Shown here one piece after another: positions 4,017 to 7,237 of a DNA stretch of 11,296 bases. Source of the DNA: a virus (taxonomy: Duplodnaviria; Heunggongvirae; Uroviricota; Caudoviricetes); IMG/VR virus record IMGVR_UViG_2534681736_000004. The stretch is one strand, 5' to 3'. The notes under the pieces are model-generated. The model was not told the origin of the DNA, made no database searches, and saw only the letters and a program-made list of their open reading frames with translations. Position 1 is the first letter of the stretch. Each line of letters starts with the position of its first letter. The position numbers were made by a program, and so were the translations under genes.

Positions 4017-5341
4017 TGCACTGGCACCTTCAGAGGGATCACCGGCACAAAGCCGGGATGCGTAATGGCATTACGCCGGATAATGTCCGCGTCACGCGCC
4101 GCGTTATCAAACCAGGTCGCCGCCAGCACCAGCGCGGGTAAAACCTCATCCGGCGTGCGCTGAATGATCCGTGCAGACTGTTCAAGGCGCGTGTTGATAT
4201 CCGCATTCAGATCTGCTTTCACCCGGCGCAGCGCCAGAAACAGCGCATCACTGGTTGTACGGGACAACTCCTTATCAATTGCCGTATTCAGTGTGTCGCG
4301 AATGTCGGTCAGTTCTTCCCACGTTGGCAGGTCAACCGTGTTTTTCACCGCCGGTGCATTGTTCAGTGCCGGATGCGTGACAGAAGGCCAGCCGGTGCTC
4401 TGCGCGGGTGTTGTTGACTGCCCTACTGTGGCATTCTGCATCACCGCGGAAGTTGTGGGCGCAGGCAATCGTGTGACGGCATACGCCGCTTCGCTGATTG
4501 CGGTCGTACGAAGGGTGCTGGCAACCACGTTACGCTGCTGCGTCGCCGTGGCGGTAGTTTTACTGTCCGTTTTCCAGACGCCGCGCGGTTGCAGATCGCT
4601 GCCGAGGCTGACACCGGAAAGCGTTTTGATCATGGTGACCAGGTCGCTGGCGTTACCATAAAGGCGTTTCCCGGTACGCCACATTTTCTGCACCTGCTCA
4701 ACGAAATTTTTGCCTGACGATGGTGGCGGCAGAAGTACCGAGATATCCCCCTGCAACAGCCTGGCGGCATCCGATACGGCAGAATCCACCACTTTCATCG
4801 CATCAGAAACATACCCAAGCATTGTGCTGGCATTACCGACGACGTCGTTCTGCACAAAATCTGCCACGCCATCGATACTGAAACCACTGAAGCTGTCACT
4901 GATGCAGTCATCCAGTGCAGAACAGGATGACATCAGCGTCTGCGCCGTCGCCGCACCTGAAGTGGGGTAAGAGAGTTCTCCCGCTTCGACAAACTTCAGG
5001 TCAAAGCGGACAATACGCCCTTCACTCTTCGATGTGCTGACCCGAACTTCCCCGTCAACACAGACTTTCAGCTCACCGTAAGTCGGATGGACAAGCGTGC
5101 CGGGACCGGGTTTATTCAGCGCGTCAATCAGGCGATCGCGCTGGTCAAAGCAGTCATCTCCCACCACATAAGCTGTGATGGACGGGCGGAAAGTGATTTT
5201 CCCCAGGTCTTCGGTATAGGGTTTGTCGCGGTTCGGGTATTCGTGCGTTTCCACACGACGACCGGTTCCCGCACTTTCTTCTTCAACCTTAAACGGCACA
5301 CCGCGAAATGACGCGTCCTGAAGTCTGTCTTTCCACGTCAT
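4013..5341 (-). CDS. DNA circularization protein N-like tail protein (Mu gpN family)
   Basis: The track ORF is 4013..5383 (456 aa), but I place the start at ATG 5341-5339, giving MTWKDRLQDASFRGVPF... (442 aa). That ATG has GGAG 7 nt upstream, whereas the ATG at 5383 has no ribosome-binding site and would put a GC hairpin plus T-run inside codons 2-8. The W-x-D-R-L-x-x-A-S-F-R-G-V-P-F N-terminus matches my recollection of the Mu N family. Confidence 0.7.
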   Translation of the reverse strand: MTWKDRLQDASFRGVPFKVEEESAGTGRRVETHEYPNRDKPYTEDLGKITFRPSITAYVVGDDCFDQRDRLIDALNKPGPGTLVHPTYGELKVCVDGEVRVSTSKSEGRIVRFDLKFVEAGELSYPTSGAATAQTLMSSCSALDDCISDSFSGFSIDGVADFVQNDVVGNASTMLGYVSDAMKVVDSAVSDAARLLQGDISVLLPPPSSGKNFVEQVQKMWRTGKRLYGNASDLVTMIKTLSGVSLGSDLQPRGVWKTDSKTTATATQQRNVVASTLRTTAISEAAYAVTRLPAPTTSAVMQNATVGQSTTPAQSTGWPSVTHPALNNAPAVKNTVDLPTWEELTDIRDTLNTAIDKELSRTTSDALFLALRRVKADLNADINTRLEQSARIIQRTPDEVLPALVLAATWFDNAARDADIIRRNAITHPGFVPVIPLKVPVQ

Positions 5342-5356
5342 ATAAACTCCGTACAT

Positions 5357-5378
5357 AAAAAATCCCACCGGAGTGGGA
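5357..5378 (-). terminator. Terminator-like or attenuator-like hairpin between the tape measure gene and the N-like gene
   Basis: On the minus strand: TCCCAC-TCCG-GTGGGA (6 bp stem, 4 nt loop; plus 5363-5378) followed directly by TTTTTT (plus 5357-5362), in the roughly 60 nt gap between the tape measure stop (5402-5404) and the proposed N start (5341). The stem is short, so function is uncertain. Confidence 0.3.
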
Positions 5379-5401
5379 CTCATTAACAGATTAATTTTTC
5401 A

Positions 5402-7237
5402 TTACCTGCCAAAGCGCGTATAGCCAACATCATGGCTGACATCAAAACCGCTGGATCGCGTTTCCATAACCCGCATACCCGGAGGCGAATTCACAAAAGA
5501 GACCTTGATCTCACCATCAACTTTTGGCGCAGAAGCTTTGTTAATCATGAAGGGATTCGGGCCTGTGGCACCGGAGGCGTTGTTTGACTGAGCCGGATCT
5601 ACCGCCTGATAAGGTGTGTATCCCCGTGCCGGTATTCCCGTCCCATAAGCATCATAAGCACCCGCGCCCCACTGCGCAGAGTTAATGGCATCGACCGTGT
5701 CACCGGAACTGTCGGTAAACCACTCAATAATTGGCTTCAGTTTGTCCCACATATCCTGAAACCACTTAACAACCGGTCCCCAGTTATTGATTACCATCCC
5801 CAGCGGCGACCAGGCAAAAACCTTCTTCAGAAGTTCCCAGCCAGCCTCAAAATAAGGACCAATGGTTTCCCAGAGCTTCTTGAAATAAGGTCCGACAACA
5901 TCCCAGTTAGTGATAATTAATCCCGCAGCCAGGGCTATCGCCGTCGCAATCATTCCAATCGGCGTCATCGACATGATCCTGCTGACAATACTGATGGCAC
6001 CGCCAACGCCCATCAATCCCAGTTTCAGAATCGCAAGACCGGCAGCAAGCCCGACGACGCCGCGAATAACCCGGGGATTTTCATCCGCAAACTTCGTGAA
6101 TTTTTCCCCTAACTCCCCCAGCCATTGCGTGATATTTTTGGCGTCACCAGAAAATGCGCCGCCAATAGCCGCAAGGCCGTTAGTTGCGGTCCCCGTCATT
6201 GCCTCCCACAGGTTGGACAGCGTACCAAGCTGGGCCTGAACACGTTTATTCAGGCTGGCCTGTTTATTCATCTTCTGCTGGATCTGATCGTAGCCATCCT
6301 TTCCTTTATCGATTAGTGCATTGACCACCTGAAGGGTTTCGGCATCATCACCAAATATTGCCTTAAGTACACCTGTTCGCTTAACGTCGGTCAGTTTTCG
6401 CAGCTTTGCCAGTTGCCTGAACATGTTATCAAGACCGCCAAAACTTCCTTTGCCGTCAGTAAAATCGAGCTGTACCCCGAGTTTCTGGCGGGCCATGATT
6501 TTATTGACGTCCCTGATTTTCTTAACGCTTAATCCGGACTGGATAACTTTTCGCAGGGCGTTACCTGCCGACTCCCCGTTCATCCCCATCTGATCCATCA
6601 TGACGCTGATGGGGGCAAGGCTCTGTGCAGCCTGAAGACCGTCCTTGTTCACCATCTTCAGAACAGAGCTGGTTTTAGTGAAGAAGGACAACATGTTGGT
6701 ATCGTCAACACCCAGATAAAACGCCTTCTGGATAGTGTCGAACAGCCCCATCATGTCTTCTGACGCCGTTCCGGTAGCATCCTGCATCTTTGCAGCAAAC
6801 TCAGCAGCCGCTTCCGGTGTTTTTTTCAGTTGTACCGCAAGATAAGCTGTCGCTTTACCCACACCGCCAAGAATGTTTTCTGCCGGGATCCCCTGACGCA
6901 CCAGCATCTGCATCATGTTCTGGAAATCAGCCGTTGTACCGGGTAGCTGGTTACCCAGGCCAATAGCCAGTTTATTGATGTCCTGAAAGCTCTTTCCAAC
7001 CTCGCCGTTCGCATCCATCATGGCGACTTTCAGCCCGGTGGCGGCGTTTTCCTGATCGGCATAAGATTTCAGGGAAAGCGTCAGACCCGCTGCCAGTCCG
7101 CCACCAAGCGCCAGCCCACCCTGTGACGCTTCTTCCGCCTGGCGTTTAAATCCCCGGATTTTCTTTTGCATTTTCGACAGCGCGGGAGAAAGCCTGTCGA
7201 CACCGGTGATCAACGCCTTAAGCTCAAATTCCGCCAT
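5402..7237 (-). CDS. Tail tape measure protein
   Basis: 611 aa ORF, ATG at 7237-7235 with AGGAG about 11 nt upstream. Ala/Gly/Leu/Gln-rich N-terminal half, a hydrophobic segment (VIRGVVGLAAGLAILKLGLMGVGGAISIV...), and C-terminal Trp/Phe-rich 11-residue repeats. Sits directly after the chaperone pair and before the baseplate genes. Confidence 0.8.
   Translation of the reverse strand: MAEFELKALITGVDRLSPALSKMQKKIRGFKRQAEEASQGGLALGGGLAAGLTLSLKSYADQENAATGLKVAMMDANGEVGKSFQDINKLAIGLGNQLPGTTADFQNMMQMLVRQGIPAENILGGVGKATAYLAVQLKKTPEAAAEFAAKMQDATGTASEDMMGLFDTIQKAFYLGVDDTNMLSFFTKTSSVLKMVNKDGLQAAQSLAPISVMMDQMGMNGESAGNALRKVIQSGLSVKKIRDVNKIMARQKLGVQLDFTDGKGSFGGLDNMFRQLAKLRKLTDVKRTGVLKAIFGDDAETLQVVNALIDKGKDGYDQIQQKMNKQASLNKRVQAQLGTLSNLWEAMTGTATNGLAAIGGAFSGDAKNITQWLGELGEKFTKFADENPRVIRGVVGLAAGLAILKLGLMGVGGAISIVSRIMSMTPIGMIATAIALAAGLIITNWDVVGPYFKKLWETIGPYFEAGWELLKKVFAWSPLGMVINNWGPVVKWFQDMWDKLKPIIEWFTDSSGDTVDAINSAQWGAGAYDAYGTGIPARGYTPYQAVDPAQSNNASGATGPNPFMINKASAPKVDGEIKVSFVNSPPGMRVMETRSSGFDVSHDVGYTRFGR
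5722..5920 (-). repeat. Degenerate 33 bp periodic coding repeats inside the tape measure gene
   Basis: On the plus strand aaataaggacc (5850-5860) and aaataaggtcc (5883-5893) lie 33 bp apart; both are the reverse complement of codons for GPYF. The protein shows GPYFKKLWETI / GPYFEAGWELL / GPVVKWFQDMW. The outer limits of the repeat region are approximate. Confidence 0.45.

Follow-up and report, generated by a model that had tools for sequence, protein, structure and literature searches.

Within an 11,296-nucleotide stretch of virus DNA (IMG/VR record IMGVR_UViG_2534681736_000004, Caudoviricetes), here called the window, a GC-rich hairpin followed by six U residues lies in the gap between two tail genes, one encoding the tape-measure protein (TMP) and the other an N-like protein of the DNA circularisation/tail type. 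Comparison with related loci indicates that the hairpin and U-tract are a real, conserved signal of the transcription-terminator type, and that the junction of the TMP and N-like genes (the TMP|N junction) is a hotspot at which AT-rich accessory ('moron') genes are inserted, with the hairpin as its conserved downstream border. On balance we lean towards reading the hairpin as an intrinsic (Rho-independent) terminator that stands at the border of this slot, would insulate the baseplate genes beyond it, and would be read through in lytic growth. The slot, and the place of the hairpin at its edge, were missed by an earlier note on the window.

Positions given below are those of the window; the genes and the hairpin all lie on the minus (coding) strand and are read in that direction. 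The features of the junction are as follows.

5404-5402, minus strand: stop codon (TAA) of the TMP gene, read from the sequence.
5383-5381, minus strand: upstream ATG in frame with the N-like gene, used as the start in the GenBank record of phage SfII; it has no Shine-Dalgarno sequence, is not conserved, and is not a real start.
5378-5363, minus strand: hairpin UCCCAC-UCCG-GUGGGA (5' arm UCCCAC, 5378-5373; loop UCCG, 5372-5369; 3' arm GUGGGA, 5368-5363), identified by sequence, folding, a terminator-scan match and compensatory changes in relatives.
5362-5357, minus strand: U-tract, U6 directly 3' of the stem, T6-T7 in relatives.
5356-5354, minus strand: second in-frame ATG, directly after the U-tract, used as the start in the GenBank record of phage SfV; not a real start.
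5350-5347, minus strand: Shine-Dalgarno sequence GGAG, 5 nt 5' of the N-like ATG and near-invariant in the alignment of relatives (A2, below); AUGUAC separates it from the U-tract and UUUAU from the AUG.
4013..5341, minus strand: N-like gene (DNA circularisation/tail), 442 aa, true start ATG 5341-5339.

The gap from the TMP stop to the N-like ATG at 5341 measures 60 nt, and both hairpin and U-run sit in this non-coding sequence downstream of the stop codon, with a spacer of 22-23 nt before the hairpin and 15 nt between the end of the U-run and the start at 5341. The earlier note had placed a short GC-rich stem-loop and six T residues here, with the anatomy of an intrinsic terminator, and both are present in the sequence. 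The core stem of 6 pairs (4 G-C and 2 A-U) closes a 4-nt loop, and RNAfold lengthens it to 9 pairs (5381-5360) by G-U and A-U pairing. The folding free energy, a calculation that the note had called for, is -13.9 kcal/mol (z = -3.8), a value equalled by only 1 of 200 shuffled sequences, and the hairpin still forms when folded with 76 nt of context. A consensus scan lists the 5363-5378 hairpin among the terminator-like sites of the minus strand; the pattern class as a whole is not enriched in the window, with 13 sites as against 10.2 +/- 3.8 in shuffles. The window by itself is insufficient to prove that the hairpin exceeds chance; the comparative data do so. Searched whole against Rfam in E-value mode, the window gave no match at the position of the hairpin, its single match being a sub-threshold Polynucleobacter-1 at 4994-5146. 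A bidirectional terminator was considered and rejected: the window lacks an A-run upstream of the stem, relatives do not conserve one, and on the plus strand no T-run follows the stem.

For the comparison, 222 related loci were gathered by means of the N-like protein and its homologues, and 212 of them were classified. A profile scan of genome contigs with the N alignment yielded 11 loci and a first scan of viral contigs 80 near-identical N genes; the scan labelled P0035 mostly re-found the same Escherichia coli prophages, and the useful diversity came from the P0049 scan. The start of N and the end of TMP were located in each locus, which gave 62 distinct variants of the sequence upstream of N. 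When the 80 nt before N were searched strictly for a GC hairpin with a T-run, 50 of these 62 variants qualified. Five further variants carry the signal when judged by eye and by folding but escape the strict scan: L009, whose T-run is taken up in long A/T pairing, and those with the long class-C hairpin (-21.6 kcal/mol). Positional concentration is marked, 50 of the 73 coding-strand matches in 443 kb of locus sequence falling into a single 50-nt bin just upstream of N. Two of the source contigs call for comment in their own right. The N gene of L007, from a contig labelled 'MAG: Bacillota bacterium' (JAEWTL010000032), is 98% identical to that of an E. coli prophage and probably reflects a binning or contamination artefact; that of L015, from an Edwardsiella hoshinae contig, is likewise 98% identical to an E. 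coli prophage, through recent transfer or contamination.

Conservation of the structure is accompanied by variation of its sequence. Stems differ by lineage (CCCAC/GTGGG, CCCGC/GCGGG, CCTGC/GCAGG, GCCACC/GGTGGC, CCACC/GGTGG and CCCGCC/GGCGGG), as do loops (UCCG, UUCG, UCAG, UACG and longer ones), and the parts that stay fixed across variants are the T-run, its spacing to GGAG, and the ATG. The T-run is T6-T7 nearly throughout, with T5 in a few class-B variants, and five columns of the U-tract are invariant in A2, a MAFFT alignment of 35 variants. In A2, 86.7% of cells are paired, as against 35-58% when the partner columns are slid, and 19 cells have changed on both sides of the stem, as against 3.7 in shuffles, none of 500 of which reaches 19, counts that overstate the number of independent events because the sequences are related and not phylogenetically independent. 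Several distinct compensatory pairs are evident despite this kinship.

The same loci reveal what the junction holds elsewhere. In the window the slot is empty, consisting of the 60-nt gap only; of the 212 classified loci, 94 are likewise without a gene there, and 118 have an extra (cargo) gene, which lies on the same strand in 104 and on the opposite strand in 14. The cargo genes belong to at least 11 unrelated families encoding proteins of 83-245 aa (among them L068, 2409-2939; L076, 2398-2910; and L226, 2178-2690; the slot is filled in loci among L008-L222). Most families have a GC content of 31-41%, lower than that of TMP (45-53%) and of N (50-57%); one family of short open reading frames (83-94 aa) has a GC content of 47-50%. 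Many of the proteins have signal peptides or membrane segments, and Pfam recognizes bPH_1, bPH_2, tRNA_anti-like and DUF7424 domains among them. Two families are assigned by PHROGs to the moron class, as 'superinfection exclusion Sie-like' and 'membrane-flanked domain', and one of the cargo genes is carried by the cultured phage SKA5. PADLOC returned no matches for ten cargo representatives. The cargo proteins, Sie-like OB-fold lipoproteins and bacterial PH-domain and DUF7424 proteins among them, are candidates for superinfection-exclusion or defence functions. Of two junctions scanned for a promoter ahead of the cargo gene, L068 has a promoter-like TTGTAA-16-TG-TAGAAT with an extended -10 between TMP and cargo, and nothing was found before the class-C cargo gene of L076.

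Whatever the cargo, the order of elements is TMP, optional cargo, hairpin and U-run, about 6 nt, GGAG, 5 nt, and the ATG of N. A GC hairpin followed by T6-7 stands some 20 nt ahead of the N start in all 94 junctions without cargo and all 104 with same-strand cargo, every same-strand cargo gene being followed by hairpin and T-run directly before the ribosome-binding site of N. The 94 loci without cargo comprise 10 distinct sequences from at least four lineages, and the N termini are as little as about 79% identical to that of the window. In the 14 loci (7 variants) that lack the hairpin before N, the cargo gene is on the opposite strand in every case, and these loci have instead a GGGAGG...CCTCCC hairpin across the TMP stop codon, where the convergent genes meet; it has the look of a terminator shared by the two. 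The TMP stop codon is in the loop of this hairpin in L008 (~2389), L013 (~2438), L100 (~2439), L143 (~2456) and L169 (~2411). A recombination-site reading of the hairpin before N was tried and rejected, the breakpoints of mosaicism lying variously upstream or downstream of it. The same hairpin is found with different cargo genes, and the homology of Shigella phage SfIV starts 12 nt inside N.

These comparisons also fix where the N-like gene starts. Its translation begins at ATG 5341, as the earlier note had argued against the first in-frame ATG at 5383. This ATG is conserved across relatives and lies at optimal spacing from GGAG; among the 62 distinct upstream variants, every hairpin-bearing junction has both, bar two exceptions to GGAG (GTGAAG in L120 and GGGG in L015), and the 7 inverted-cargo variants keep the ATG of N behind a different leader without GGAG. 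Pfam DNA_circ_N matches residues 7-93 of the protein over profile positions 2-88 (E = 6.4e-34), and RefSeq PGAP places the start at the equivalent of 5341. In relatives, ATA, GTG, ATT or GTT stands in place of the ATGs at 5383 and 5356. With the start settled at 5341, the wrong upstream ATGs in GenBank are those of SfII, whose N-like coding sequence begins (11934) inside the record's own annotated terminator, an inconsistency, and of SfV (U82619), whose start at 11655 is the middle ATG.

All real genes of the window are on the minus strand, and their Pfam matches describe a Mu-type contractile-tail module.

8004-9500, minus strand: sheath gene (Pfam).
7648-8004, minus strand: tube gene (Pfam).
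7379-7648, minus strand: tail assembly chaperone gene (Pfam).
5402..7237, minus strand: TMP gene, 611 aa, from the open reading frame list (Pfam PhageMin_Tail, E = 1.3e-26; PGAP 'phage tail tape measure protein').
Downstream of the N-like gene, minus strand: a GpP-like baseplate gene in two pieces, then gp45-like and further baseplate genes (Pfam).

The hairpin stands at the border between the tube and TMP genes and the baseplate genes. Its gap had been described as the only sizeable one in the cluster, a claim that fails, since a larger one, of 141 nt, extends from the chaperone stop (7379) to the TMP start (7237). That stretch is covered by a -1 frame open reading frame (7412..7224, minus) which PGAP leaves unannotated and to which a canonical slippery heptamer, T TTT TTC at 7397-7391 (minus), gives entry; it is very probably coding by -1 frameshift, a programmed extension of the kind expected for the tail assembly chaperone. 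The GpP-like baseplate hub gene (2953-4016, minus) is broken into open reading frames 4016-3747 and 3690-2953, spanning 1064 nt here as against 1080 nt in intact copies of other strains, and PGAP flags the identical O157:H7 copy as 'frameshifted'.

The window stretch is 100% identical to prophages of many E. coli genomes, O157:H7 strains among them, and 97-99% identical to SfI, SfII and SfV, serotype-converting phages of Shigella. In O157:H7 strain FRIK944 the prophage lies at the tRNA-Thr gene beside proA (thrW-integrated) and has a lambdoid complement of repressor and cro-like genes, Q antiterminator (WP_001008431; PF03589, E = 8e-53), holin, lysin, terminase, HK97-type head and tail module; Q, lysis, terminase, head and tail genes are all on one strand, with Q upstream. 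Lambdoid late operons are activated by Q antitermination (PMC2629481). The prophage is thus lambdoid and under Q control, its likeness to Mu being confined to tail proteins, and no gene in it is annotated as a C/Mor-type activator, a statement about annotation, no profile search for C/Mor having been made. Elsewhere in the same late operon, outside the window, the major capsid gene is followed by two neighbouring terminator-like hairpins on the coding strand (L003, 3317-3365), between the capsid and head-tail connector genes, where the SfV record annotates a terminator. These further hairpins suggest that internal terminators are a general feature of this late operon.

The preference for an intrinsic terminator comes from its anatomy combined with covariation, a strictly conserved U-tract and a position that depends on gene orientation. 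Polymerase unmodified by Q, whether it set out from a cargo promoter or strayed through the head and tail genes of a lysogen, would stop at about 5357-5360, so that the N-like and baseplate genes would not be entered. Q-modified polymerase reads through intrinsic terminators, and because the operon lies downstream of Q, the terminator should be largely read through in lytic growth: after induction, Q-modified polymerase from the late promoter would pass the hairpin. Some polarity may be added, as a secondary effect, by leftover termination or by shielding of the upstream RNA's 3' end. A terminator effective against transcripts from cargo promoters or from the lysogen would match the definition of morons, which carry their own promoter and terminator and can be expressed from repressed prophages (PMC3594210). 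More tentatively, and with rather less confidence than we place in termination as such, the hairpin may be kept in an empty slot as a standing 'right border', permitting promoter-bearing cassettes to be expressed in the lysogen while the baseplate genes stay off. If so, the border would serve small proteins of at least 11 families, most of them directed to the envelope, as candidates for new superinfection-exclusion or anti-injection functions.

Several observations weigh against this interpretation, in addition to the kinship of the sequences. The core stem is short, at 6 bp with 4 G-C pairs. With the slot of the window empty, no Q-independent promoter is evident upstream from which the baseplate genes would need insulating; a scan found no promoter-like site on the minus strand near the empty slot. 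The GpP-like baseplate gene being frameshifted, the prophage copy in the window probably cannot build tails, which makes a present-day lytic function doubtful. Junctions of the SfIV type (SfIV, L086 and L208) alone are without any hairpin; they have a different TMP, a TMP-N gap of 24 nt and an N-terminally extended N (SfIV is L225, 2917-2990). SfIV forms plaques (PMC3851460), and since it does so without the hairpin, the hairpin is dispensable for making phage. The extension of the SfIV N-like protein amounts to about 16 residues and joins the common sequence at a conserved Trp.

Other roles can be proposed for the same structure. As a partial terminator (attenuator) acting in lytic growth, it would end a fixed fraction of late transcripts after TMP and so leave the messages for sheath, tube and TMP in excess over those for the baseplate, which was the main idea of the earlier note. 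Its position at the border of these two groups of genes and its retention in all empty-slot loci are consistent with such a role, and the second pair of terminator-like hairpins after the capsid gene would fit graded expression. We nonetheless consider attenuation unlikely to be the principal function: Q-modified polymerase should largely ignore a hairpin in an operon downstream of Q, TMP is itself a low-copy protein and its end an odd place for setting stoichiometry, SfIV plaques without the hairpin, and inverted cargo moves the hairpin to the TMP stop, which follows a logic of gene orientation and not of dosage. Alternatively, a stable GC hairpin followed by a single-stranded AU-rich stretch could, after endonucleolytic cleavage in the AU-rich spacer, shield the 3' end of the upstream message from 3'-to-5' exonucleases, and the freedom of loop and stem sequences to vary within a conserved structure would suit such a stability or processing element. 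The U-tract, however, is as strictly conserved as the stem, and it is needed by a terminator and not by a protective hairpin, which makes this explanation improbable as the main one; a stability role is in any case compatible with termination and not exclusive of it.

It is also conceivable that the hairpin is a relic, the terminator of an accessory gene since deleted from the slot and now functionless in this prophage. The hairpin of the window is nearly identical to that following the bPH_1 cargo of L015 and L189 (in both, the N protein shares about 99% identity with that of the window), and L188 is a hybrid of the two; homology between the window's stop-to-hairpin spacer and the 3' flank of the bPH_1 cargo would point to an origin by deletion, but their pairwise alignments are weak. 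Yet all 94 empty-slot loci, from at least four lineages, have an intact hairpin and T-run, and the presence in empty slots of stems that differ and remain complementary (CCTGC/GCAGG, CCCGC/GCGGG) argues for maintenance rather than decay, so that there is little to recommend the idea of a relic. A translational role, in which the U-tract enhances initiation at N and the hairpin keeps ribosomes and the false starts at 5383 and 5356 out of the leader, would draw on the constant spacing of GGAG and ATG from the hairpin and U-run, and on the GGUGGGA in the 3' arm, which could otherwise act as a false Shine-Dalgarno sequence for the ATG at 5356. Such a role is very unlikely given the textbook-terminator anatomy and the entirely different leaders of the inverted-cargo and SfIV-type junctions, which have neither hairpin nor U-run. 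Least of all do we credit a functionless hairpin arisen by chance: terminator-like patterns are as frequent in shuffled sequence as in the window, but across relatives the hairpin's conserved position, its covariation and the orientation rule contradict this explanation, which is almost certainly wrong.

The hairpin is a routine member of a well-known class, already annotated in the sister phage SfII, where positions 11928-11966 (GenBank KC736978 / NC_021857) are a 'putative rho-independent terminator' covering hairpin and T-run. This is the same element as in the window, lying between the tape-measure and DNA-circulation genes in a stretch 98% identical; in the SfII record it is a computer prediction without comparative or experimental support, and the SfIV paper, from the same laboratory, employed a terminator-finding program. 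The points added here are modest, namely conservation with covariation and a probable role as border of the cargo slot. For the biology of these phages, they present a tail module that is Mu-like in its proteins yet under lambdoid Q control, in which a conserved, predicted internal terminator marks an accessory-gene hotspot, and it is the cargo genes, rather than the hairpin, that may repay experiments on superinfection exclusion or defence.

Three known systems place the junction in context. A close parallel to the slot is provided by the morons of lambdoid phages, such as gene 15 of HK97, which lies beside the tape-measure gene in the late operon (PMC3594210): the relatives of the window likewise have an AT-rich extra gene beside TMP in a tail operon, followed by what appears to be its own terminator hairpin. 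The window differs in having the terminator only, with no extra gene, and its slot lies between the TMP and N-like genes of a Mu-type tail module and not in a siphovirus tail module of the lambda/HK97 type. The tail genes of Mu itself are homologous and identically ordered (sheath, tube, chaperone, TMP, N, P, gp45-48), and its late units Plys, PI, PP and Pmom are activated by C (PMC2582627), where the late regulator in the prophage of the window is the Q antiterminator. In Mu, moreover, 4 nt separate the TMP stop from the N start, with no hairpin between them, and the analogy with a Mu late promoter near the baseplate genes, drawn in the earlier note, does not carry over to a lambdoid Q prophage. 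In its regulation the window instead resembles the Q-antiterminated late operons of lambdoid phages, with an operon downstream of Q and intergenic terminator-like hairpins after the capsid and TMP genes.

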